This document shows, one piece after another, positions 23,217 through 47,885 of a stretch of 64,000 nucleotides of DNA. Numbering within the stretch: the stretch's first letter is position 1; the number at the start of each line of letters is the position of its first letter. Under the pieces are notes generated by a model that did no database searches, was not told the DNA's origin, and saw only the letters and a program-made list of their open reading frames with translations. The position numbers and the translations under genes are program-made. The DNA is taken from positions 6,165 to 70,164 of the forward strand of contig JBBREK010000001.1 in the NCBI GenBank assembly GCA_038203025.1, in the 5' to 3' direction. Origin of the DNA: Planctomycetota bacterium. GTDB taxonomy: Bacteria > Planctomycetota > UBA11346.

Positions 23217-23864
23217 TCAGGCCAACAGGCCCTTGGTGGACGGCACGCCGGTACCGCTGACGCGGATGGCCTGGCGCAGGGCGCGGGCGAAGGCCTTGAA
23301 GCCCGCCTCGATGATGTGGTGGCTGTTGCGGCCGGCGCGCTGGTGCAGGTGCACGGTGATGCAGGCCTGGTCGGCGAGGGCGCCGAAGAATTCCGGGACC
23401 AGCTCGGTGGCGAGGCCGCCGACTGACGCCGCTGGCGGGGCCAGTTCGTAGGTCAGCCAGCCGCGGCCGCTGATGTCTACGGTCGCCTCGACCAGTGCCT
23501 CGTCGAGCGGGCAGGCAATGTGGCCGAAGCGCTCGATGCCGGACTTGTCGCCGACGGCCTGACGCAGGCACTGGCCGAGCACGATACCGCAGTCCTCGGT
23601 GGTGTGGTGGCCATCGATGTGCAGATCGCCCTTGCACGACAGCCGCATGGTGGTGCCGCTGTGCTTGGCCAGTGCCTCAAGCATGTGGTCGAGGAATCCG
23701 ATGCCGGTGGCGATCTCGCTGGCGCTGCTGCTGCTGCTGCTGCTGCTGCCGCTGCCGCTGCCGCTGCCGCTGCCGCTGCCGCTGCCGCTGCCGCTGTCGA
23801 GATCCCAGGTGGCGGTGATGTCGGTCTCGCGCGTCTTGCGCGTCACGGTCGCGGTGCGGGGCAT
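23217..23864 (-). CDS. hisB: Imidazoleglycerol-phosphate dehydratase carrying a simple-sequence-repeat-encoded (SG)8S8 loop insertion.
   Basis: Has the GIGFLDHML and KGDLHIDGHHTTED...NSHHIIEAGFKAFARALRQA motifs of the dehydratase. The insertion DSGSGSGSGSGSGSGSGSSSSSSSS lies in a loop that is 5-8 residues long in E. coli HisB. Confidence 0.85.
   Translation of the reverse strand: MPRTATVTRKTRETDITATWDLDSGSGSGSGSGSGSGSGSSSSSSSSASEIATGIGFLDHMLEALAKHSGTTMRLSCKGDLHIDGHHTTEDCGIVLGQCLRQAVGDKSGIERFGHIACPLDEALVEATVDISGRGWLTYELAPPAASVGGLATELVPEFFGALADQACITVHLHQRAGRNSHHIIEAGFKAFARALRQAIRVSGTGVPSTKGLLA
23725..23796. repeat. In-frame microsatellite (CTG)8(CCGCTG)8, which is (AGC)8(AGCGGC)8 on the coding strand, inside hisB.
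   Basis: Read directly from the sequence. Confidence 0.9.
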
Positions 23865-24045
23865 GGCCGCAGGATAGCGCTGGCCTTTGCAGAGGCCACT
23901 ACCCGGGAATCAAGAGCCGCGCAGCGGCGACGGCCGCGCAGCGGCGGTGGGTGGATAACCTGGGCGCAGCCCCTCCGCCCACGATCTTGGAGCCTGCGAC
24001 AAGATCGAGCCGGGACAAAGGCCGCGGGGGCAGGGCCCCCGAGCA

Positions 24046-27181: not shown

Positions 27182-27229
27182 CGTCCACTGCGGCTGTTGT
27201 GCGCGCCATCTGGCGCTAGGCTCGACGGC

Positions 27230-28787: not shown

Positions 28788-30536
28788 TCAGCCCATTGCT
28801 TCCAGCCATTGCGCTTCGCTTGTCTCCAGCTCAGCGATGACCACGGCGAGGCGCTGGCCCTGGGTGGCGTCGTAGGTGTGGCCCAGCGAGGCTTCCAGCC
28901 CGGTCTTCTCAGCGGTCAATTCAGCGACGCGCTTCTCCAGCCGTTCAGCCAGGCGCTGCTTCGCCTTGTCCGGCGGCTTGGCGATGGTCTGGGTCTTCGG
29001 CTTCTCCTTCGCCTTCGGCGCTGGCGCCTGGCCGTCGCTTTCGGCCTCCAGCTGTGCGAGGTATTCACCGTAGCCGCCAGGGAACAGGCTGAAGGTGCCA
29101 TTGCCCACTTCGATCAGCCTGGTCGCCACGCGGTCGGTGAACGAACGGTCGTGGCTGGTGAACAGCACGGTGCCGGGGAAGGCGACCAGCGCGTCGGCCA
29201 ACGCCTCCACCGTTTCGACGTCGAGATGGTTGGTCGGCTCATCGAGCAGCAGCACGTCGTACCTGCCAAGCAGCAGGCCGCCCAGGCACAGTCGCGCGCG
29301 CTCGCCGCCGGATAGTATGCCGACCCGCTTCTTCAGGTCGTCGGGGCGGAAGAGCAGGGCGCCGGCCAGGTCGAGGACCTCTTGGCGCGGCGGGTTCTGT
29401 CCCGGCGCCTCGCGGGCGCAGCGGAACAGATGATCCTCGGCGATCATGTCGGCGCTGAAGGCGGTGTAGACGTCCTGGGCGTAGAGCGCCACGCGCAGTC
29501 CGGTGGCCCAGCGGAAGGTGCCCGCGATCGGCGTCAGCTGCCCGGCCAGGGTGCGCAGCACGGTGGTCTTGCCCTGGCCATTGTCGCCGAGCACGGCGCA
29601 GCGGAAACCGCGGTCGAGATCGACGTGGTCGCAGGTGGCGACAGTGCGGCTGCCGTAGCCGACCGCCAGGGCGTCACACTGCAGCGCCCAGCCCTTGCGC
29701 GTCTCGCAGGCCGGGATGCGGATGCGCGGATCGGGGTCGTCGCTCTCGATGTCGAGGAACTGGCCCTGCAGCTTTTCCAGCTCCTTGGCCTTGGACGAGG
29801 CGCGCGTCGCGGTGCTGGCGCGGGCCTTGTTGCGGGCGACGAAGTCCTCCAGCTGGCGGCTTTTGGCGGCGAGGTTGGCATTGGTCGCGGCGTCGGCGGC
29901 GCGGCGTTCGGTCTTGGCGGTTAGCCAGGCCTGCACCCGGCCGGGGAAGCGGCTGATGCGACCGCCCGCCACTTCGATGGTCTGCGGGCAGGTGCGTTCG
30001 AGGAAGCCACGGTCGTGCGAGACGATCAGCCAGCCGCCACGGAAGCCGGCAAGGAAGCGCTCCAGCAGCATGAGCGTGCGCAGGTCAAGGTAGTTGGTCG
30101 GTTCGTCGAGCACCAGCAGATCGGGCTCACGCAGCAGCATGGCGCACAGGCGCAGGCGGGTCTGCCAGCCGCCCGACAGCGACTCGGCCGGCAGGTCGAG
30201 CGTGTCGTTGAAAACGTGGAAGTCGGCGGCGAGCTGGGCGCAGGCCCAGTCGGCCTGGCCGGTGACGCGTTCGAGGTAGGCCAGGGCGGTCTCGCTGGCC
30301 TCGAAACGCTCATCCTGGCGCAGCCAGGCGATGCGGGCGTGGTCGCGGATGATGACCTTGCCGGCATCGAGTTCCTCCTGGCCGAGCAGCAGGCGCAGCA
30401 GGGTCGACTTGCCGCAGCCGTTTCGCCCGATCACGGCGATGCGGTCACGCTCGTCGATCTCCAGGTCGGCCCCGTCGAGGATGTCCTTGGACCCGTAGGC
30501 CTTGTGCAGGTCGAGTGCTTTGAGGATCCAGCTCAT
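28788..30536 (-). CDS. ABC-F family ATPase (tandem ABC domains, no transmembrane domain).
   Basis: Two Walker A motifs (GRNGCGKST, GDNGQGKTT) and two LSGG signatures, separated by a charged linker. Confidence 0.85.
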   Translation of the reverse strand: MSWILKALDLHKAYGSKDILDGADLEIDERDRIAVIGRNGCGKSTLLRLLLGQEELDAGKVIIRDHARIAWLRQDERFEASETALAYLERVTGQADWACAQLAADFHVFNDTLDLPAESLSGGWQTRLRLCAMLLREPDLLVLDEPTNYLDLRTLMLLERFLAGFRGGWLIVSHDRGFLERTCPQTIEVAGGRISRFPGRVQAWLTAKTERRAADAATNANLAAKSRQLEDFVARNKARASTATRASSKAKELEKLQGQFLDIESDDPDPRIRIPACETRKGWALQCDALAVGYGSRTVATCDHVDLDRGFRCAVLGDNGQGKTTVLRTLAGQLTPIAGTFRWATGLRVALYAQDVYTAFSADMIAEDHLFRCAREAPGQNPPRQEVLDLAGALLFRPDDLKKRVGILSGGERARLCLGGLLLGRYDVLLLDEPTNHLDVETVEALADALVAFPGTVLFTSHDRSFTDRVATRLIEVGNGTFSLFPGGYGEYLAQLEAESDGQAPAPKAKEKPKTQTIAKPPDKAKQRLAERLEKRVAELTAEKTGLEASLGHTYDATQGQRLAVVIAELETSEAQWLEAMG

Positions 30537-30590
30537 GCGGGGGGAAGACGTACAGGGGGTTCGGCGGCACGCCAGCCATGGGAAGGCAAA

Positions 30591-30632
30591 GGCGGAAGGC
30601 GGAAGGCGGAAGGCGGAAGGAGGAAGGCGGAT
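30591..30632. repeat. (GGCGGAA)4-6 heptanucleotide tandem repeat in the ABC-F/ndvB divergent promoter. A complementary CCTTCCGCCTTCCG lies 50 nt downstream at 30685..30698.
   Basis: Read directly. Confidence 0.9.
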
Positions 30633-30797
30633 AGAGTTGCTGCGCGCACGACTCCGATTGGGCGCTTGTGGTCATTTCTTCTCCCTTCCGCCTTCCGTCT
30701 ATGGGGGGGAATGACTGATTGTAGCCACGTGGAAAATCCCGATGATTTTACTACCTGTTGCACCTTCGTGCAGGAGACCGGACCAGGAGACGTCGAC

Positions 30798-33700
30798 ATG
30801 ACCTCAGCCCCGCGCGCCTCGATCCCTGCCAGCCTCCCCGTCGAGGTGGTCAGTGGAGATGCGCTGTTGCGGGCCGAGATCTACAGCGTCGAGCAGATGG
30901 AGGGCCACGCCCGCCGCCTGGCGACCTGGCACCGGGTCGACCGCGGGGGCTGGGGCAGTCCGCTGCTCGACCGTCTCGGCGCCAACCGCGTCGCCCTCGT
31001 CCAGGTCATCGACCGGCTGCGCGCCGCCCCCGACCGCGCCCTGGTCCCGGCTGCCGACTGGCTGCTCGACAATCAGTACCTCATTCTCGACCAGATCACC
31101 ACCGTCCGCACCCACCTGCCGCGCGGCTACAGCCGCGAGCTGCCGCGCCTGACAGTGGGCGATCCGACCGGCATGCCGCGGGTTTACGGCCTCGCCCTAG
31201 AGTACATCGCGCACGGCGATGCGCACGTCGATGCTGAGGGCATCGGGCGTTTCGTCGGCGCCTACCAGGAGTCGGTCAGCCTGACCATGGGCGAGCTGTG
31301 GGCAGTGCCGATCATGCTGCGCCTGGCGCTGATCGAGAACCTGCGCCGCATCGCCACCCGGGTGGATACGGCCCAGTGCCGGCGCGAGTCGGCGGCGGCC
31401 TGGGCGGTGCGCTTCGTACAGGCCGCCGAGCTGAACCCCAGTTCGCTGGTCGTCGCCATCGCCGACCTGGCCAAAGAGAGCAAGCTCGAACCGGCCTTCG
31501 TCGGCGAGCTACAGCGCCGATTGCTCGGCCAGCATCCGGGAGTCGGACTGGTTCTGCAGTGGCTGGAGCAGCGCCTCGGCGAGCGTCGCCAGACGGTCGC
31601 TGACCAGGTGCGCCTCGATCACCAGGACCAGGCCGCCGATCGCATCGCCGTGGCCAACGCCATCACCAGCCTGCGTGGCATGGGGGCGATCGACTGGAAG
31701 GAGTTCGTCGAGCGCATCAGCGCAGTTGAGGCGGTATTGCGCGAGGATCCGACGGGGATCTACGAGGCGATGGATTTCGCCTCGCGCGACCTCTACCGTC
31801 ACGAGGTCGAGCAGATCGCTCGCCGTTGCCGGGCCGAGGGGGCCGAGGCGCAGCAGGCGGTGGCGCGGGCGGCGATCTCGCTGGCCTCCGGTGCCAATGC
31901 CTCTGCCAGCACGGACCCTGACCGGCCGCCGCGCGGCCATGTCGGCTGGTGGCTGGTCGACGGCGGCCGCCGTGAGCTGGAGGAGCGCCTCGCCGGATCG
32001 TACGGACTGCGTCATCCGCGCGGTCACGGGCCGCGACCGCTGCGTACGTATCTCGTGCCCATCGTCCTGCTTACCGTGCTGGCCACTGCCGCCGCTGTGG
32101 TGGCCGCAGGCGGCCTGACGATGCCTGTCGGCCTGGCCATCTGCTTGGCCGTGCTGCTGCTGCCGCTGGCCTGCCAGGCGGGCAAGACGCTGATCGACTG
32201 GATGACCACCAGACTGGTGGCGCCGCGTCAACTGCCACGGCTCGATTTCGCCCAGGGCATCCCGGCGGAATGGCGCACCGTCGTGGCGGTGCCGACGCTG
32301 GTGCGCACGAGGCGCGACCTCGACAGCGTGGTCGAGGGCCTGGAGGTGCGCGCCCTGGCCAACGAGGACGATCATCTCGTCTTCGTGCTGCTCAGCGATT
32401 TCGGTGACGCCGCCGCCAAGGAGCAGCCCGGCGATGCAATCGTGCTGCAGCACGCGGCCACCGTGCTGACCGCGCTCAACGATCGCCACCGGCGCGCTGA
32501 CGGCCGCGACCGTTTCCTGCTGCTGCATCGCGACCGCATGTGGAACCCGCGCGAGGGCGTGTGGATGGGGCAGGAACGCAAGCGCGGCAAGATCGAGGAT
32601 CTCAACCGCCTGCTTCTGCACGGCGATGTCGCCGCCTTTACCACCACGCTCGGCGATGTCGGGGTTCTGCAGGGGGCCAGGCTGGTGCTGGTGCTCGATA
32701 CCGACACCCGTCTGCCGCGCGATGCCGCCCGGCGCATGGCCGGGGCCATGGCCCATCCGCTGAACCGGCCGCGCCTGGATCCGGCGACCCGTACGGTGAG
32801 TGGCGGCCACGCCGTGCTGCAGCCGCGCGCTGCGGTGTCGATGAGCAGCAGCGGACGCTCGTGGTACGCCTCGCTGTGGGCCGGCGACGCCGGCATCGAT
32901 CCCTATACCCGCGCGGTCTCCGACGTTTACCAGGACCTCTTCGATCAGGGCTCGTTCGTCGGCAAAGGCATCTACGACCTGCGCGCCTTCTCGGCCTCAT
33001 TGGCCGACCGTTTCCCCGACAACGCCATCCTGTCGCACGACCTGATCGAGGGCAGCTACGCCCGCTCCGGCCTGCTCAGCGACGTGGTTGTGGTCGAAGA
33101 CCATCCGGCCACCTACCTCGCCGACATGGCGCGACGCATGCGCTGGGTGCGTGGCGACTGGCAGCTGCTGCCGTGGCTGCTGCCGCGTACGCCGACCGCC
33201 CGCGGCTGGGCACGCAATCAACTCAACGCCTTGGCGCGCTGGAAACTGATCGATAATCTGCGCCGCAGTCTGGTGGCTCCGGCCAGTCTCGCCGCGTTGC
33301 TGTTGGCGTGGACCTGCCTGCCGGCGGCCGGCGCGATCGCCATCGCCCTGGTGGTCGCGGCGGTGACGGCGCTGCCGGTGGTGCTGTCAGCCGCCAGCGG
33401 ACTGTCCGGTGATAACCGCCTGCGCGTCCGGCTCGGCCTGGTGGTCTCTGGTGGCATGCGCGGCCTGGCCGCCGGCCTCGCCGGCATCGCCTTCCTGCCA
33501 TTCGAGGCTGCCCGCACCATCGACGCCGTGCTGCGCACCCTGTGGCGACTGGTCATATCACGCCGGCATCTGCTGCGCTGGCAGACTGCCAGCGATGCCG
33601 AACGGCTCGCTGCCACCGGCCTGGCCGGCATCTCCGGCGCGATGGCGGTGGCCCCGTTGCTTGGTTTCACCGTGGCGCTACTCGCCCTGTTGCGGCCCGG

Positions 33701-40577: not shown

Positions 40578-41537
40578 CTAATGACCCGGTTGCAGGGCTG
40601 CGTCGTCGATCGGCAGCCCTGCCGCCAGGGCCGCCTTGATCAATGGCTGCGACTGCGTGCCGCGGGGCAGGCTGCCGAGGTGGGCTACAGCTTCGTCGCG
40701 TCGTCCGAGCTGGGCCAGGGCGATGGCTTGCATGAGGCCGGATCGGGGATCCTCCGGCCGGGCGGCGCTGGCGTAGGTCGCCTGCGCCAGCAGGCCGCCC
40801 CAGTCCTGGTCGGCGAGCGCGGCGTAGCCGAGGGCGAGTCGTGGCCAGACACTTGCGGATTCGCGACCGAGGGCGACCAGGGCATGCAGCCGCACCTCCG
40901 GCCAGTCACTACGCGCCGCCGCCTCGCGGGCCAGACAGACGCGCGGCCAGAAGGCGCCCGGATCGGCTTCGGCCAGGGCGCGGGCGGTGTCGGCCAGGCG
41001 CGCGTCGGGAACGAGGCAGGCCAGCGCCAGTTCGGCGGTGATTGGCTGCGCCAGGGCCAGCTCCAGGTCTGGGCTGGTGGTGGCGACCAGGCCGTCTGCC
41101 TCGACTGCGGCGCCGGCGATGGCACGTCCGAGGGCCGGCCAGGCCGGATCCTGGCACTTGGCCAGGGCGGCTGGGACGCGCGGGTCCAGCGTGCCGGCGG
41201 AGGCCTCGGCGCAGGCCAGCTCGATCAGCGCCCGGCGCAGCCGCGCCGCTTCGGGATGGTCGAGCACTGCGCAGGGCTGCCCTGGCCGCGGATCGAGGGC
41301 GCCAGCCAGCTCTAGTGCGGCGTTCAACTGGGCGATCTCCTCGGGCCAGGAGCCGCGCACCCGCCACGAACGGTCGAGCGCGTCGAGGGTGTCGGCGAGC
41401 AGCTGCTGGCGCGTGGCATCGTCGCGCGCCCAGGTTGCGGTCGATGGCGCGGGAGGAGGCGGATCCGCAGAGCGCCGTCCGGCCGCCTCGCCGAAGCGCC
41501 AAGCGAACAGTCCGATGACGGCACCCGCCGCCAGCAT
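40578..41537 (-). CDS. Membrane-anchored Ala-rich hypothetical protein with a TPR-like C-terminus.
   Basis: N-terminal transmembrane segment LAVMLAAGAVIGLFAW, with repetitive helical Ala/Leu-rich sequence after it. The start is uncertain: the ORF-track start at 41603 would overlap copA. Confidence 0.4.
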   Translation of the reverse strand: MLAAGAVIGLFAWRFGEAAGRRSADPPPPAPSTATWARDDATRQQLLADTLDALDRSWRVRGSWPEEIAQLNAALELAGALDPRPGQPCAVLDHPEAARLRRALIELACAEASAGTLDPRVPAALAKCQDPAWPALGRAIAGAAVEADGLVATTSPDLELALAQPITAELALACLVPDARLADTARALAEADPGAFWPRVCLAREAAARSDWPEVRLHALVALGRESASVWPRLALGYAALADQDWGGLLAQATYASAARPEDPRSGLMQAIALAQLGRRDEAVAHLGSLPRGTQSQPLIKAALAAGLPIDDAALQPGH

Positions 41538-41557
41538 CACCGCCAGTCGGGTGGCGT

Positions 41558-43681
41558 TCACGCCCGCCACCAGCCCAGCCGCAGGCTGTTGCCGACCACG
41601 CATAGTGAGCTGGCGGCCATCGCTGCCGCCGCCCAGGCCGGATCGAGCCGGCCGGTCATCGCCAGGGGGATGGCGCAGAGATTGTAGACGGCGGCGAAGG
41701 CCAGGTTCATACGCACCGTGTGCATGGTGGCGCGGGCCAGGGCGACGGCATCGCCGGCGGCGCGCAGCGGATCGTGGCCATCAAGGATGAGGTTGCCGGC
41801 CAGGGCGGCGATGGTGGCGCCACCGCCGACCGCGGCGCCGGCGCTGGCGCGGGCCAGCATAGGTGCGTCATTGATGCCGTCGCCCAGGGCAAGCACGCGG
41901 TCGCCGGCGGACTCCAGCTGGCTGACCATGCGCGCCTTGCCTTCTGGCGACAGGTCACCGCGGGCATCGCCGATGCCCACTGCCTGGGCCACGCGTCGGG
42001 TCTCGACGGTGCGGTCGCCACTGGCCAGATGCAGCCGCAGACCCAACCCGCGCAGCCGTGCCAGGGCCTCGGTGGCGCCGGGTCGCGGCCCGTCCCCCAG
42101 GCGCAGGGCGCCGATCCAGCGGGCGTTGGCGGCGACGTGGACGACGATGCCTGGTCCGGCCGGATCGCCGGGCGGGGCCGCCGCGCCGCGGTCGGCGAGG
42201 AAGGCGCGACTGCCCACCAGCACCTCGCCGCCATCGACCACGGCGCGCACACCGCCGCCTGGCGTGGCGGCGAACTCCGTGGAGGCCGGCACGGCCAGGC
42301 CCTGCGCTGCGGCAGTGATGGCGGCGGCCACCGGGTGTTCGGAACCGCGTTCGGCCGCGGCGGCGAGGGCGAGGATGGAAGCGCGGTCGCAGCCTGGGGC
42401 GCACAGCACCTCGGCCAGCTGTGGTAAGCCGGTGGTGATGGTGCCGGTCTTGTCGATGACGGCGGCGCGGGCCTGGGCCAGCGATTCGATCACCGTGCCG
42501 TCGCGCACCAGGATGCCGCTGCGTGCCGCCCGGCCGACCGCCACCGCGATCGCGGCCGGGGTGGCCAGGCCGAGGGCGCAGGGGCAGGCGATGACGAGCA
42601 CGCTCAGGGCGGCGATCAGGCCGTGGTGCCAGCCCTCGGCGCCGCCCAACCACCACCAACCGGCCAGAGTGGCGAGGGCCAGGAGGATGGCGGCAGGGAC
42701 GAAGACGCCGGCGACCCGGTCGGCGAGGCGGGCGATCGGCGGCTTGGCGGCAGCCGCTGCGCGCATCGCCTCGGCGATCGCGGCCAGCCGGGTGGCGCCG
42801 CCGGTGGCGTCGACCCGGACGACCAGTGTCCCGAGCCGGTTGATCGTGCCGGCGCTGACCTCATCGTCGACGCGCTTGACCACCGGCATCGGCTCGCCGG
42901 TGAGCAGTGCCTCGTCGACCTCGCCACCGCCTTCCAGCACGGTGCCGTCTGCCGCCACCGCATCGCCCGGCCGCACCCGGATGCGATCGCCGACGCGCAG
43001 TGTTGCGGCGTCGACCAGTTGCTCGCCGTCAGGCCCCAGGCGCAGCGCCTTCGGTGGTTGGCGTTCCATGAGCTCGCGCACGGCGGCGCCGGCGCGCGCC
43101 CGTCCGCCGGCCTCCAGGGCCCGACCAATCAAGGTGAAGGCGATGATCGCAGCGGCGCTTTCCGCGTGCAGGTGCGGCCAGCCCAGGACCAGTCCGACGA
43201 GGCCGTGGATGCAGGCGGTCACTGCGCCCAGCGCCACCAGCAGGTCCATGTCGCCATGCAGGCGCAGGGCCGAGCGGGCCGCGCGCATCACGATGGTCCG
43301 TCCGGGCCAGGCCAGGGCGAGCACGGCCAGCGCAACCTGGATGGCCGGCGAAGCCGGATGATGCGGCGCCGCCATCGCCCAGGTCATCGCCGTTCCGGCC
43401 AAGGCCATTGCGACCAAGGCGCGCAGCCGCGCCGGCCGCGGATCCTCGCCCGGCGTCTCGGCGACATGAACATGGACGGCAAAGCCGAACTTCGCCAGCC
43501 GCTGCTGTACCGCCGCGATGGTCAGCCCGCCGTCGCTGAGCCGCAGCCGCGCCTGCCGCGCGATCAGATCGACGCGCAGTTCGCTGATCCCTGGCTGCGA
43601 CGCCAACGCCGTCTCCATGCGCCGCGCGCACGCCGCGCAGTGCATCCCGTCGGTGACGTCGAGAACAATCTCAGCCGGCAT
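41558..43681 (-). CDS. copA: Copper-translocating P1B-type ATPase.
   Basis: N-terminal heavy-metal-associated domain GMHCAACA, then the CPC (ACPCALGLATP), DKTGTIT, GDGINDAP motifs, and a C-terminal transmembrane segment. Confidence 0.85.
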   Translation of the reverse strand: MPAEIVLDVTDGMHCAACARRMETALASQPGISELRVDLIARQARLRLSDGGLTIAAVQQRLAKFGFAVHVHVAETPGEDPRPARLRALVAMALAGTAMTWAMAAPHHPASPAIQVALAVLALAWPGRTIVMRAARSALRLHGDMDLLVALGAVTACIHGLVGLVLGWPHLHAESAAAIIAFTLIGRALEAGGRARAGAAVRELMERQPPKALRLGPDGEQLVDAATLRVGDRIRVRPGDAVAADGTVLEGGGEVDEALLTGEPMPVVKRVDDEVSAGTINRLGTLVVRVDATGGATRLAAIAEAMRAAAAAKPPIARLADRVAGVFVPAAILLALATLAGWWWLGGAEGWHHGLIAALSVLVIACPCALGLATPAAIAVAVGRAARSGILVRDGTVIESLAQARAAVIDKTGTITTGLPQLAEVLCAPGCDRASILALAAAAERGSEHPVAAAITAAAQGLAVPASTEFAATPGGGVRAVVDGGEVLVGSRAFLADRGAAAPPGDPAGPGIVVHVAANARWIGALRLGDGPRPGATEALARLRGLGLRLHLASGDRTVETRRVAQAVGIGDARGDLSPEGKARMVSQLESAGDRVLALGDGINDAPMLARASAGAAVGGGATIAALAGNLILDGHDPLRAAGDAVALARATMHTVRMNLAFAAVYNLCAIPLAMTGRLDPAWAAAAMAASSLCVVGNSLRLGWWRA

Positions 43682-43716
43682 GCCGGTACGTTAGGCAGCG
43701 CGCAGCCCCTGCCAGT

Positions 43717-43848
43717 GGGTTTGGGTTTGGGTTTCGGTTTCGGTTTGGGTTTCGGTTTGGGTTTCGGTTTCGGTTTCGGTTTCGGTTTCGGGTTCCGAGC
43801 CCCAATCCCCAATCCCCAATCCCCAATCCCCAATCCCCAATCCCCAAT
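43717..43848. repeat. Compound microsatellite of 12 copies of (GGTTTS, a mix of GGGTTT/CGGTTT) at 43717-43788, followed by (CCCCAAT)7 at 43800-43848. It lies in the 334-bp leader/intergenic region upstream of copA.
   Basis: Read directly. Confidence 0.9.
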
Positions 43849-44015
43849 CCCAGATGGTCGGGGTACGCCGTCCGGGGAGTGAGCGACCAAGCGCGTGGCG
43901 ATCGATAGGGCCAGCGTGTGTGGTAAGTTCCACGCGCGCGTAGCGAGCCTGGAGCGACCCCCGCCGCCTGGCGAATCGACGCGCGTATGCGCGGCGTGTC
44001 GAGCGGGGTCCGGGG

Positions 44016-47000
44016 TCAAGGCCCCGGCGGGGGGCCTGGGGGGCTTGGCCCCCCAATCCGATAGCCCGTTACGGCGCCCGTCTGATCCGCAATCACGACC
44101 ACCCCCGGCAGCAGCAGCGGCGGGGTGATGGCTGGGGCGCCATGGGCGATGCGACGCACAGTCTGGCCGTCAGCGAGGCGGATGACGGTGATGCCACCGG
44201 TGTCGTCGGCGATGGCCACCAGGCCGCCACCGAGGCCGACCTGCAGCGGCTTGCCTAGGATTTTGCTCCGCCAGCGCGGCTTCACCGGGTCAGTTGCCCA
44301 GGTGGCGATGTCGACGGCGCGGTCGGCACGGGCCAGGACCACGGTGTCGCCACTAGCGGCAGGTACGGCTGGACCGGCCTCGGTCAGCCAGGGGTGCGGC
44401 TGCAGGACGGCGCCGGATTTGCCCAACTGGATCAGATCGACGCCGGCGACGGTGGCGACCAGCAACCGTCCACCTGGCAGTTCGGCCCAGGGGCCGGTGC
44501 GCGCTGCCTTCAGCGACAGGCGTTCGGATTCGCTGCCGTCCTCCTCAATCACGCGCACGGTCAGGTCGTCGATGACGACCAGTTTGTCGTCGCTGCGGCG
44601 CAGCAGCGGCTGGGCGGTGCCGGCGACGCCGGGCAGCCGCCAGATTTCGCGGGCGCCATCACGGGCGATGACCGCGCGGCCACCGGGGGCGTCCTCGATC
44701 GATACGGTGAGGCGTCCACCGGCTCGGTAGACCAGTTCGATGTCGAGCAGGGCGAGCGGCGCGCCGGCCAGGCGACGCACTGGCACGGCACGGTCGAGCG
44801 TGGGCAGGATCTGGCGCTGTTCGCCGTCGGTGGTGGCGAAGGTCCAGCCGCCTTCGACCGCGAGCCACCATGGGACCAGGGTCGTACCCGGCAGGGTCAG
44901 CGGCCGGATCGCCCCCGAGGCGGTGTCGATGGCGGTGGCGCCGTCGGCAGACAGCACCACCACCGCGGACGCGGCCGGGTGCAGACGGATCCACGCCGGT
45001 CGCGTCGCCGGGGCCGGCAGGCGCCACACCGGGGCGGGGCCGAGCGTCACGTCGAGCACGCGCTCGGCGGGATCGCTGGCCGCGGTCACGACGATGCGGC
45101 GGGTGGCGTAGCCCGGGGTGCCGACCTCAAGCTGGATATCTGCCGTCGCCGAACGGCAGAACCGCCCATCCTTCCCCACCAGCTCGACGTCGTTGGCCAC
45201 CAGGCGCATGGTCGGCAGCGCCGTGCCGGTGTCGGCGTCGGTGGCGCGCACCCGTCCCGGCAGGGGCAGCCCGGCGATCAGGCTGCTGGTACGTGGATGG
45301 TCGGCGGAGAAGCGCGCCGCCAGGTCGAGGGCATCTCCGTGACGGCCCTGTCCGCGCGCGGTGTCGATGGCCGAGCGCGCGGTGGCGGCCTGCGCCAGCC
45401 GGCTCTGGGCATCGGCAAGAATCGCCGCCGCCTGTGCATCGGCAACCAGCGGCCTGGCCGCGGCTACGACCTGGTCGAGGGGTGTGGCGGCATCGGCGGC
45501 CAGCCGGGACAGCTCGGCGAGAGCGGTGGGGCTGGCGGTGGATTGGGTCTTGGTTGGCGGTGGCCTGGAACTGCGCGGCGGCGCGGGCTCATCGGCTTGA
45601 CGTTCTGCCGAAGCTGCAGCGGCTGCAGCGGCGGGCACCTCGTAGCCGCGCCGGAACAGTATCCGGTACCACATCCAGCCGCCCTGATTGGCGGCGGCGA
45701 ACTCGCGCAGCCGGTGGCTGCGATCGGCCGGGTCGGCGAGGCTCTCCAGGCGGGTGCGTTCGCGTTCGGCTAGCAGGTTGTGGACCACCGGTGGCCAGAT
45801 CCACAGGTTGACGCCAAGCAACGCGGCGCTGATCGCGCCGATGAGCAGGCCGCGCAGCCGCCGCCGCGAGCGGGCCCGGTGCGCCGCATCCTGGGCCAGG
45901 TTGGCGAGCCGACGGCTCTCGCCGGTATCGCGAGCCAGTTGCGAGGCGCGCTTCCACTCGCCGGCGGCGACCTCCCAGCTGCCCGAGGCGGCGAGGCGTT
46001 CGGCGCCGGCGGCGATCGCCGCCACCTCGGCCTTCAGACCACGTTCGCGGGCGCGATCGATGGCGCCGGCTGACAGCGCGCTGGAGCTGGTGCCGCCCTT
46101 GCGCTCGCCGGGCAATGGTGTGGCCATGCCGGGGAAGGGGGTGGCGAGGGTCGGCGGAGGCACCACCTGCGAACCGCTGGCGGTCGACAGCGGTGTGCGC
46201 GGACTGCGCGACCCGATGGCTGGGGCCTGGGCGGTGCGCGACCCGATGGCCGGGGCTGGTCCGGTCCGCGATCCGATGGCTGGGGCCGGTCCGGTGCGTG
46301 ACCCGACGGCGGGGGTGGGGCCGGCGTGCGGCGGCGACACTACTACGGCATCGATCGGGCGCAGCCAGTCGGGGATGACCGGTGGTGCGCCCGGGTCCGG
46401 CGAGGCGGTGGGCGCCGGCACGGTGCGCTGCCGTCCAGATGGCTTGGCCCCGGGGATGGGGGCGCCGGCGCCGCTGGGCAGGTCCGAGGTCGGGGCGGCG
46501 CGCTTGCCCGAGCTGCCCTGGCCGGTGGCATGCTGCACCAGGGCGCGGATCGGACCGTTGGTCTTGCGCAGCACCGAGGCGGTGCCGGTGAGCGCCACAA
46601 GCAGCTTCTCGGCATCATCGATCAACTCGCGCAGTTCGAAGCAGCGGTCGTCGGGTTTCTTCGCCATCATCCGGCGGACCAGCGACTCGACCCGCGGGTC
46701 GAGGTCGGCGCGGTATGTGCGCAGGCTCGGCACCGGATCGACCTTGTGCTTGAGCATGATGCTGAACGGGGTTTCGCCGTCGAACGGCAGGTGCCCGGTG
46801 AGCATGAGGAACGCGGTGCAGCCGAGGTTGTAGACGTCGCTGCGCGTGTCGACCTCGACGCCGTCGCACTGCTCTGGGCTCATGAACGCCGGGGTGCCGA
46901 CGCGCACCCCGACCGAGGTCACCTCGGAGTCGCCGGCGCTGCCCTTGGCCAAGCCGAAGTCCGAGACCTTGCAAAGACCGCTGATCGCGACCATCAGGTT

Positions 47001-47885
47001 GTCGGGCTTGATGTCGCGATGGATCACGCCCTTCTCGGTCGCCTGTTCGAGGCCGAGCAGAGCCTGGCGGAGGATGTCGAGGGTCTCGATCTGCGACAGC
47101 GTCGGCTGGCGCCGCAGCACCTCGCCGAGGTCCCAGCCGTCGACGTACTCGATCACCATGAAGTAGACGCCGAGCTGGGGATCGTCACCGAAATCGTAGA
47201 TCTGCAGGATGTTGGCGTGATTGATGCGCGCCAGGCTCTTGGCCTCGCGCTCGAAGCGCTGGATGAAGTTGCGATTGCGCGCCAGCTCGGGCGGCAGGAC
47301 CTTGATTGCGACGCTGCGGTCGAGCGACAGCTGGCGGGCGTGGTAGACCGCGCCCATGCCGCCCTCGCCGAGTTTGCGGTCGATCTGGCAGCCGCGCAGG
47401 ACGCGGCCGATCAGGCGGTCGCCGCCGCCCGCGCCGCCAGGGGTCAGGCGGCCAGTGGAGCGTTGGAAGCTGGTGCCGCAGGCCGGGCAGTTCTGCTCGT
47501 CGGCGCCGGGCGACCCGACGAAGCCGTGTCCGCACACCGGGCAGCTGGCCTTCTCGCCATGCAGGTTGTCGGTCGACGGGCGGAAGGCGAGTTCGCTGAC
47601 CGGCAGGGGGCTGCGCCCGTCGCGGGCCGATTCCTGTTCCAGCCGGTCGAAGGGCAGGTTGCCGGGCGTGGACGACCTCGCCGCCGGCTTCGGCCTGGGC
47701 GGGGCGCGCCGCTGGGTCAGCGGAGCGGGCGGCACGGCGCCGTCCTCGACCGGCAGGTATTCATCGCTGCTCTGCCCTGGCATCCAGTGGTGGTTGCAGC
47801 TTTCGCAGATGACCGTTGTGCCGGCCTCGATCGGCCCGGGATGGGCCGACCGGCAACGTGGGCAACGATGGACGGAGACGGTCAT
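44016..47885 (-). CDS. Large Ser/Thr protein kinase of 1289 aa. It has N-terminal zinc ribbons, a kinase domain, Pro-rich decapeptide repeats, a transmembrane helix and a C-terminal beta-propeller-like extracytoplasmic region.
   Basis: Two CxxC..CxxC ribbons. Kinase motifs GEGGMGAVYHA, HRDIKPDNLMV, DFGLAKG and SPEQ. (GPAPAIGSRT)x4 repeats. The C-terminus has periodic repeats like VVIADQTGAVTGYRI. Confidence 0.75.
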   Translation of the reverse strand: MTVSVHRCPRCRSAHPGPIEAGTTVICESCNHHWMPGQSSDEYLPVEDGAVPPAPLTQRRAPPRPKPAARSSTPGNLPFDRLEQESARDGRSPLPVSELAFRPSTDNLHGEKASCPVCGHGFVGSPGADEQNCPACGTSFQRSTGRLTPGGAGGGDRLIGRVLRGCQIDRKLGEGGMGAVYHARQLSLDRSVAIKVLPPELARNRNFIQRFEREAKSLARINHANILQIYDFGDDPQLGVYFMVIEYVDGWDLGEVLRRQPTLSQIETLDILRQALLGLEQATEKGVIHRDIKPDNLMVAISGLCKVSDFGLAKGSAGDSEVTSVGVRVGTPAFMSPEQCDGVEVDTRSDVYNLGCTAFLMLTGHLPFDGETPFSIMLKHKVDPVPSLRTYRADLDPRVESLVRRMMAKKPDDRCFELRELIDDAEKLLVALTGTASVLRKTNGPIRALVQHATGQGSSGKRAAPTSDLPSGAGAPIPGAKPSGRQRTVPAPTASPDPGAPPVIPDWLRPIDAVVVSPPHAGPTPAVGSRTGPAPAIGSRTGPAPAIGSRTAQAPAIGSRSPRTPLSTASGSQVVPPPTLATPFPGMATPLPGERKGGTSSSALSAGAIDRARERGLKAEVAAIAAGAERLAASGSWEVAAGEWKRASQLARDTGESRRLANLAQDAAHRARSRRRLRGLLIGAISAALLGVNLWIWPPVVHNLLAERERTRLESLADPADRSHRLREFAAANQGGWMWYRILFRRGYEVPAAAAAAASAERQADEPAPPRSSRPPPTKTQSTASPTALAELSRLAADAATPLDQVVAAARPLVADAQAAAILADAQSRLAQAATARSAIDTARGQGRHGDALDLAARFSADHPRTSSLIAGLPLPGRVRATDADTGTALPTMRLVANDVELVGKDGRFCRSATADIQLEVGTPGYATRRIVVTAASDPAERVLDVTLGPAPVWRLPAPATRPAWIRLHPAASAVVVLSADGATAIDTASGAIRPLTLPGTTLVPWWLAVEGGWTFATTDGEQRQILPTLDRAVPVRRLAGAPLALLDIELVYRAGGRLTVSIEDAPGGRAVIARDGAREIWRLPGVAGTAQPLLRRSDDKLVVIDDLTVRVIEEDGSESERLSLKAARTGPWAELPGGRLLVATVAGVDLIQLGKSGAVLQPHPWLTEAGPAVPAASGDTVVLARADRAVDIATWATDPVKPRWRSKILGKPLQVGLGGGLVAIADDTGGITVIRLADGQTVRRIAHGAPAITPPLLLPGVVVIADQTGAVTGYRIGGPSPPGPPPGP
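46206..46325. repeat. Four tandem ~30-bp repeats inside the kinase gene, coding the decapeptide repeats GPAPAIGSRT.
   Basis: gcgcgacccgatggctggggcctgggcggt appears four times with drift. Confidence 0.7.

Follow-up and report, generated by a model that had tools for sequence, protein, structure and literature searches.

A compound heptamer–hexamer repeat tract upstream of copA in a Planctomycetota-like genome is built from two mutually complementary arrays

The long repeat tract that separates a large Ser/Thr kinase gene from copA consists of two tandem arrays that are mutually complementary hairpin arms. This architecture, which was missed in an earlier, sequence-only reading of the same DNA, recurs elsewhere in the window (the whole 64-kb stretch of DNA that was analysed; G+C ~70%) and in relatives. 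Together with ~19 nt of flanking sequence on each side the arrays are, according to structure prediction, able to form a stem-loop or cruciform of ~170 nt, and by its motif the heptamer arm of the sense strand is a strong candidate for a G-quadruplex (G4). The explanation we tentatively prefer – to which we assign a probability of about 0.4 – is that the tract is a GGGGATT-type repeat hairpin/G4 that has grown by slippage and that acts, if it acts at all, as a boundary between transcription units. The tract was thought to control copA but is most likely part neither of the core promoter nor of the mRNA of that gene, and a long microsatellite beside a promoter is not in itself evidence for phase variation.

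Organization and predicted folding of the tract

The tract forms part of a 334-bp gap between two minus-strand genes. As the sequence-only reading had stated, and as the ORFs and their Pfam matches confirm, these genes are a large kinase gene and copA: the kinase gene ends 165 nt 5' of the tract, and the other end of the tract is 36 nt 5' of the copA ATG. The position of the copA start is fixed by an in-frame TAA 12 nt upstream of the ATG. The features of the region (coordinates are those of the window) are as follows.

41558–43681 (ATG at 43681), minus strand: copA, encoding a P1B-type Cu+ ATPase of 707 aa (Pfam E1-E2_ATPase, Hydrolase and HMA; homologues)
43688–43693, minus strand: TAACGT, candidate -10 box 6 nt 5' of the copA ATG (TANNNT conservation)
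43700–43717, minus strand: right flank, sense CACTGGCAGGGGCTGCGC, predicted to pair with the left flank; overlaps a -35-like CTGGCA (43715–43710)
43717–43795, minus strand: hexamer array, (GGTTTS)x13 on the plus strand and (GAAACC/CAAACC)x13 in sense; C-rich, G-poor 3' arm of the predicted hairpin (TRF, sequence)
43796–43799, minus strand: junction between the arrays and apex of the predicted hairpin, which together with the degenerate units reads GGGGCTCGGAACCC in sense (sequence, folds)
43800–43851, minus strand: perfect heptamer array, (CCCCAAT)x7.4 on the plus strand and (GGGGATT)7GGGG in sense; 5' arm of the predicted hairpin and G4 motif (TRF, regular expression)
43852–43870, minus strand: left flank, sense CGGCGTACCCCGACCATCT, predicted to pair with 43700–43717 (duplex energy, MFE structure)
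43852–44015, minus strand: unique part of the spacer, without homology in relatives or in the rest of the window (blastn, Rfam)
44016–47885, minus strand: Ser/Thr kinase gene, 1289 aa (Pfam Pkinase)

Tandem Repeats Finder (TRF) places both arrays among the four top-scoring arrays of the whole 64-kb window, and the compound microsatellite described previously is real. The hexamer array (GGTTTC, 43718–43795) has a period of 6, 13.0 copies, 91% matches and a score of 121; the heptamer array (CCCCAAT, 43800–43851) has a period of 7, 7.4 copies, 100% matches and a score of 104. Read directly, the sixth base of successive hexamers is G G C C G C G C C C C C, after which come a degenerate GGGTTC and CGAG. 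On the minus strand, which is the sense strand of both genes, the tract reads (GGGGATT)7GGGG, then CTCGGAACCC, then 12–13 units of GAAACC or CAAACC. The five hexamers that adjoin the heptamer array (on the apex side, at the greatest distance from copA) all have the same sequence, and a 12-mer sub-repeat can be made out.

The constituent sequences are largely confined to the tract. With up to one mismatch allowed, GGGGATTGGGG has 8 matches in the window compared to 1.5 expected (a number reached by none of 100 shuffles), and GAAACCGAAACC has 11 compared to 0.09: all of these matches but one lie inside the tract. The unit GGGGATT is found in the 64-kb window at this locus only. In composition, too, the tract is extreme: the sense strand of the hexamer arm (C33, G8) has the highest excess of C over G of any 78-nt stretch on either strand of the window. 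The compound motif GGGGATTGGGGATTGGGG-N0-30-GAAACCGAAACC gave 0 matches in 241 million metagenome records, while (GAAACC)4, with more than 120 matches in viral contigs, is too unspecific to be of use. A scan against Rfam returned one chance match, located outside the tract (E = 0.38; 12.9 bits against a gathering score of 100). ORFs that run through the repeat have only sub-threshold, low-complexity Pfam matches, in agreement with the sequence-only reading, which took them for translation artefacts.

Folding of the 171-nt sense strand gives one long imperfect stem-loop with a minimum free energy (MFE) of -77.6 kcal/mol (z = -4.4 compared to dinucleotide shuffles), in which the heptamer array provides the 5' arm, the hexamer array provides the 3' arm, and the structure reaches into both flanks. 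Because shuffling destroys the repeats, a stricter null model was built in which letters were permuted consistently within units, so that array structure and composition were kept (n = 400). None of the 400 unit-permuted versions folds as stably as the tract (mean -57.4, sd 8.7), and the same is true when the arrays are folded without their flanks (-56.0 vs -37.9 ± 8.5; again 0/400). The unique flanks, of 19 nt and 18 nt, are themselves predicted to pair, with a duplex energy of -19.6 kcal/mol compared to -12.6 ± 3.0 for shuffles (P about 0.02). The antisense strand has an MFE of -71.0 kcal/mol, less stable than the sense strand, although such a comparison of strands is not decisive across elements.

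Within each unit GGG pairs with CCC and UU with AA, leaving one mismatch or bulge. The periods of the arms differ (7 vs 6) and ~5 of every 6–7 positions pair: the hairpin is thus imperfect and competes with the G4. The regular expression G3+N1-7 finds a G4 motif on the minus strand only, where (GGGGATT)7GGGG supplies eight tracts of three or four G separated by 3-nt loops; the plus strand has no match. The earlier suggestion that the tract might form non-B DNA is plausible, but the G4-prone sequence is the minus-strand heptamer array and not GGTTT, to which that property had been attributed.

The kinase gene upstream of the tract has peculiarities of its own. Comparison of C-termini shows that its product ends in an extension of 11 residues (IGGPSPPGPPPGP) that is missing from orthologues. 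The DNA encoding the extension (44016–44060, ATTGGGGGGCCAAGCCCCCCAGGCCCCCCGCCGGGGCC) contains two short G/C hairpins and begins with a GGGGATT-like unit, ATTGGGGGG. Further inside the gene is a 30-bp repeat of ~3.6–3.7 copies (46205–46315), which is conserved in an orthologue (L001, 1088–1196) and probably encodes a protein repeat.

Related repeats and orthologous loci

Heptamer repeats have been described in Nostoc PCC 7120 (GGGGA(C/T)T) and in Xanthomonas (GGGAATC) by Rehm et al. (2015, PMC4692102). These repeats are mostly intergenic, with a preference for positions between co-oriented ORFs; the arrays have 2–26 units, most often four, and the genomes of Xanthomonas each contain 70–75 convergent pairs capable of forming stem-loops (PMC4692102). 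The oligonucleotide (GGGGATT)3GGGG forms a G4 by CD, with a T1/2 above 95 C in KCl, and (CCCCAAT)3CCCC forms an i-motif (PMC4692102). Most heptamer repeats are transcribed, transcript starts and stops at G4-type repeats exceed controls in Xanthomonas, and loci shared between Xanthomonas species carry repeats of unequal length (PMC4692102). No function has been demonstrated for the class and, since the associated genes span all functional classes, the authors judge phase variation to be unlikely (PMC4692102). In Nostoc, removal of heptamer repeats is reported to alter the output of a recO reporter (bioRxiv 10.1101/2022.06.06.494920).

Judged by its sequence, the heptamer half of the tract belongs to this GGGGATT class. 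Where the class is defined by at least two tandem units of GGGGA(C/T)T, the tract has 7.4 perfect units of GGGGATT; where a G4 needs at least four uninterrupted G-tracts, the regular expression finds eight; and the 334-bp gap is non-coding and lies between co-oriented ORFs. In common with the published class, the G-rich strand is the coding strand and the array is some distance from the start codon, and, somewhat as in the Xanthomonas pairs, the heptamers face a partner array with which a stem-loop would be possible. The Nostoc type of unit, GGGGA(C/T)T, corresponds to the cyanobacterial STRR heptamers. There are also differences. The tract resides in a Planctomycetota-like genome of ~70% GC; its partner is a hexamer array, (GAAACC)n, that is not a reverse complement of the heptamers (~5 of 6–7 positions pair; 0/400 permutations); no spacer separates the arms; and there are seven plus thirteen units rather than the modal four. 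Within the 64 kb, GGGGATT is found at a single locus, and a second heptamer array, of another unit, lies at 30581. What is new in the tract is another lineage for the heptamer class and an unusual hexamer partner.

Two further types of repeat invite comparison. Like REP/BIME elements and rut sites, the tract is an intercistronic stem-loop located after a stop codon, with ~78 nt of untranslated, C-rich, G-poor sequence; what it lacks, compared to REP/BIME, is a conserved dispersed sequence, nor was a transposase seen in association with it. The additional copies by which a REP/REPIN or a MITE would be recognised were found neither in the window nor in relatives or metagenomes. The TAACTGA repeats of Beggiatoaceae, Cyanobacteria and Bacteroidetes are, like the heptamers of the tract, intergenic direct repeats near start codons and accompany genes of all functions (MacGregor 2015, PMC4679880), but they are made of a different unit, are almost never inverted and sit just 5' of the start codon, within a few nt of it (PMC4679880).

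Inverted pairs of arrays are found elsewhere in the window and beyond it. A second element in the window (30581–30700; MFE -65.6 kcal/mol) comprises (GGAAGGC)7.4 at 30581–30631, then ~50 nt, then (CCTTCCG)2-3; it occupies a divergent intergenic region between a minus-strand gene that starts at 30536 and a plus-strand gene that starts near 30798. Four inverted heptamer-array pairs are present within 18 kb of a related MAG, L003 (737–834, 7806–7953, 10197–10340 and 16720–16874), two of them built from GAAGGCG, the unit that L003 has in common with the 30581 element. Two of the L003 pairs bracket copA – one in the kinase–copA gap and one just after copA – at junctions that in other relatives are contiguous or overlapping.

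A census of arrays was made over 163 loci (1.9 Mb) picked only for encoding a CopA relative. The commonest short period is 7 (48 of 129 arrays), and neighbouring arrays of the same unit form 8 inverted pairs and 0 direct pairs. Beyond L003 the pairs are at L037 (14409–14518), L040 (16460–16544), L052 (8926–9000) and L060 (5472–5566), on Terriglobales, alphaproteobacterial, Blastocatellia and Bacteroidetes contigs, with units of 7–8 nt. The hairpins of these four loci, of L003 and of window positions 30581–30700 resemble the tract in having two tandem arms, in being intergenic near the ends or starts of genes, and in their very stable predicted fold. They differ from it in that the periods of the two arms are equal (7–8-nt units), the arms are separated by 13–91 nt of unique spacer, there are 4–7 units, and the units themselves are others (GTTCGGC, GAAGGCG and more).

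The GGGGATT unit is also present in IMG/VR, where (GGGGATT)3 or longer occurs in contigs of 63–69% G+C, several of which have an (AATCCCN)n partner. Runs of (GAAGGCG)3 or longer occur in contigs of 59–72% G+C, and because some of these have imperfect partners, for example (CCTTCAT)n, there is precedent for arms that are not identical. One (GGGGATT)4 hairpin, found in six metagenome samples, shows 3 substitutions per 1100 bp and no change in copy number.

The closest CopA proteins are 83–84% identical and all metagenomic, the nearest named genomes being Planctomycetota MAGs. Seven related copA loci were compared (L083, the P0011 contig, L001, L002, L082, L250 and L003). In two of them, L083 and the P0011 contig, a repeat-free gap of 8–9 bp separates copA from the end of the preceding large-kinase orthologue, and a second kinase gene overlaps the end of copA: the three genes are thus arranged as a tight operon. 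An MCP gene is interposed between kinase and copA in L001; the gene upstream of copA encodes a STAS protein in L002 and L082 and a coiled-coil protein in L250; and in these four loci the gap before copA is about 50–65 bp and free of repeats. The only recovered relative with repeats in the gap is L003 (68% CopA identity, same kinase–copA synteny), in which (GTTCGGC)4.4, an 86 bp spacer and (GAACGTC)4.6 make up an inverted pair. Upstream gaps of 359 bp (P0002, JGI 3300059473) and 372 bp (P0003, GCA_041442895.1) are found in close relatives. A blastn search revealed no homologue of the 334-bp spacer in any recovered relative or elsewhere in the window, and a CopA-based metagenome scan contributed, apart from a partial contig and a second record of L003, only L250, which has no repeat.

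Since most relatives have no repeat, but instead a gap of 8–9 bp or another upstream gene, the tract appears to be a sporadic, lineage-specific insertion or expansion; on this comparison of sequences it is not a conserved copA control region. The kinase and copA flanks are syntenic in L003, L083 and the P0011 contig, which shows that the junction is not an assembly chimera. On the other side of copA, a 341-aa ORF (40578–41603, minus strand) aligns only with residues 427–668 of the 714-aa kinase of L083 (58% identity): by this alignment, the kinase domain of the post-copA gene has been lost in this genome.

The copA promoter

The 60 nt preceding the copA ATG were aligned for eight orthologues. 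The sole strongly conserved feature is TA at -12/-11 together with T at -7. The hexamer TANNNT is found exactly 6 nt 5' of the ATG (-12 to -7) in the window and in L001, L002, L082, L083 and L250, compared to a background of 0.0012 per position. It is not a shared stop codon, because the upstream genes differ among these loci. Near -33 the alignment also shows a TGGC-like motif; a Shine-Dalgarno sequence is absent.

Three of the 36 genes in the window have TANNNT 6–7 nt 5' of the ATG, compared to 0.4 expected: copA (43688–43693), hisB (23870–23875) and a third gene (about 27216–27221). This arrangement suggests that leaderless mRNAs are made in the lineage. In leaderless genes of high-G+C bacteria the -10 box is located shortly before the ATG and the transcript starts at the A of the ATG. 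From the pattern of conservation we infer that copA has its own promoter of leaderless type, composed of CTGGCA, 16 nt, TAACGT, 6 nt and the ATG; the proposed -10 matches TATAAT at three of six positions. The hisB gene (imidazoleglycerol-phosphate dehydratase, a housekeeping enzyme; 23250–23864, minus strand, ATG at 23864) also has an in-frame (SG)9S8 insert near the N-terminus, coded by a (GCTGCC)11.7(GCT)n microsatellite at 23727–23796.

A leaderless copA promoter would place the repeats upstream of about -37, and so outside both the leader and the -35/-10 spacer. This has consequences for two earlier proposals. The repeats had been assigned to the leader of copA, whereas TANNNT at -12 to -7 and the lack of a Shine-Dalgarno sequence point to a promoter downstream of them. 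Changes in unit number had been expected to shift promoter spacing; the tract, however, lies upstream of the candidate -35 and outside the -35/-10 spacer.

Consensus scans of 43400–44300 found no sigma-70-like promoter and no intrinsic terminator (0 sites), and the hairpin is not followed by the run of T that characterises intrinsic terminators. Three other candidates in the region were rejected: a sigma-54-type reading of TGGCAG...GCGC and a MerR/CueR-type dyad (GGCAG-N10-CTGCC) are not conserved in the orthologue alignment, and GGAACTT (43931–43925), considered as an ECF-type -35, has no matching -10 at the right spacing.

Possible roles of the tract

If the tract is a transcription-unit boundary, transcripts reading through from the kinase gene would first encounter the G4/hairpin and, after it, 78 untranslated nt that are rich in C and poor in G and so resemble a Rho-loading site. 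The two together would pause or terminate read-through, with the result that copA would be uncoupled from the kinase operon. Replication slippage probably causes the copy number to drift, because the heptamer array is perfect, the five apex-side hexamers do not differ from one another and the 12-mer sub-repeat can be discerned; the outcome would be a tuning of the structure and not an on/off switch for copA. We favor this proposal because transcript ends cluster at the repeat class in Xanthomonas, because G4s and hairpins obstruct transcription, and because of the composition of the hexamer arm.

A C-rich, G-poor composition is expected of a Rho-loading site. The composition of the 78-nt arm is indeed rut-like, yet the arm is able to pair with the G-rich arm; moreover, in the L003 hairpins the right arm is not rich in C, which means that Rho loading does not account for the class as a whole. 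Were the boundary reading true, it would provide a function for repeats that many bacteria contain in excess and that have gone unexplained since 2007–2015, and it would mean that a tight kinase–copA–kinase operon had been split into transcription units merely by growth of a repeat hairpin.

The tract may alternatively be a neutral by-product of a genome prone to slippage expansion of 6–7-nt repeats and be without effect on either gene, which is the next most probable explanation, if on balance a doubtful one. It is consistent with the (GCTGCC)11.7-coded insert carried by hisB, a housekeeping gene; with the fact that most orthologous copA loci are without arrays and that the exact compound is found nowhere else; with the failure so far to demonstrate a function for the published heptamer class (PMC4692102); and with the general rearrangement of the locus, where the gene that follows copA no longer encodes a kinase domain. 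It sits less easily with two observations: neighbours of the same unit are always inverted (8 vs 0), and the arms of the tract are more complementary than those of 400 unit permutations. Each of these favors a structural constraint, or some specific mechanism that generates such pairs, over independent random expansions. The positional preferences of such repeats in Xanthomonas, and the transcript ends found at them, likewise speak against neutrality (PMC4692102).

A contingency locus, in which 6- or 7-bp unit changes alter promoter geometry within a population and thereby bring copA under slipped-strand or level-variable control, is unlikely. The long tracts, with their perfect heptamer array, would be good substrates for slippage, and the tract abuts the candidate -35. 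It also resembles the phase-variable microsatellites of Neisseria, Haemophilus and Bordetella in being a long perfect tandem repeat near a promoter. The repeats of those genera, however, have units of 1–5 nt, are located in a -35/-10 spacer, an ORF or a regulator site, and belong to surface or host-interaction genes, and the tract shares with them neither unit size nor position nor type of gene. It is not within the predicted -35/-10 spacer, nor would a leaderless copA mRNA include it; and the downstream gene encodes a Cu+ P-type ATPase, a homeostasis function, and not a surface, host-interaction or restriction-modification function. Relatives regulate copA without any repeat, no activator site is known upstream of the tract, and the related (GGGGATT)4 hairpin keeps the same copy number in all six samples.

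Published data on this question point in both directions. The variation in repeat length among Xanthomonas species at shared loci (PMC4692102) and the changed recO reporter of Nostoc after heptamer removal (bioRxiv 10.1101/2022.06.06.494920) are in keeping with contingency control, but the heptamer class as a whole has been judged unlikely to mediate phase variation (PMC4692102). With most orthologues lacking the repeat as well, the description of the tract as a classic slipped-strand architecture is not supported.

Quite unlikely, too, is a 5'-UTR or intercistronic RNA element, according to which copA is transcribed from upstream (by read-through from the kinase gene or from a promoter in 43852–44015) and the hairpin or an RNA G4 controls translation or mRNA stability. 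In relatives with a junction of 8–9 bp, copA must be co-transcribed with the kinase gene, which counts for an RNA element, as do the greater predicted stability of sense RNA over antisense (-77.6 vs -71.0) and the fact that the G-rich strand is the sense strand. Against it, copA has a conserved TANNNT box 6 nt 5' of its ATG but no Shine-Dalgarno sequence, a combination that points to a leaderless start; the structure ends 18–36 nt before the ATG, so that the start codon is not sequestered; and the tract has no match in Rfam.

A more elaborate reading, and a decidedly improbable one, joins a G4/hairpin structural switch at the tract to the idea that inverted array pairs are a cross-phylum class of boundary elements with a dedicated generating mechanism. 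Folding of (GGGGAUU)7 as a K+-stabilised G-quadruplex would free (GAAACC)13 as a 78-nt single-stranded, C-rich Rho-loading site; pairing of the arms as a hairpin would hide that site; and the balance between the two states would set the cut-off of kinase-operon transcription ahead of the leaderless copA promoter. While direct pairs were not seen, inverted pairs of 7–8-nt arrays were met in Planctomycetota-like, Acidobacteriota, Alphaproteobacteria and Bacteroidota contigs. Least probable is that the tract is an artefact of assembly or a miniature transposable element whose terminal inverted repeats are made of the arrays. Weak complementarity of the flanks and a lineage-specific spacer speak for it, but the flanking genes are syntenic in three independent assemblies, no second copy was found in the window, in relatives or in metagenomes, and no target-site duplication is evident.

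A last observation concerns the GGGGATT unit in DNA that looks eukaryotic. Among the 'viral' contigs of IMG/VR are several small ones of 21–33% G+C that end in (GGGGATT)n (L093, L098 and L101; also L092, L094 and L106). In L093 and L101 the repeat is present at both ends, in inverted orientation, and L098 has head-to-head runs in its interior (469–559). These contigs look like telomeres of eukaryotic (ciliate-like) mini-chromosomes and not like viruses. A telomere reading of CCCCAAT at the copA locus was rejected, the low-GC contigs that end in the repeat being unrelated, eukaryote-like DNA.
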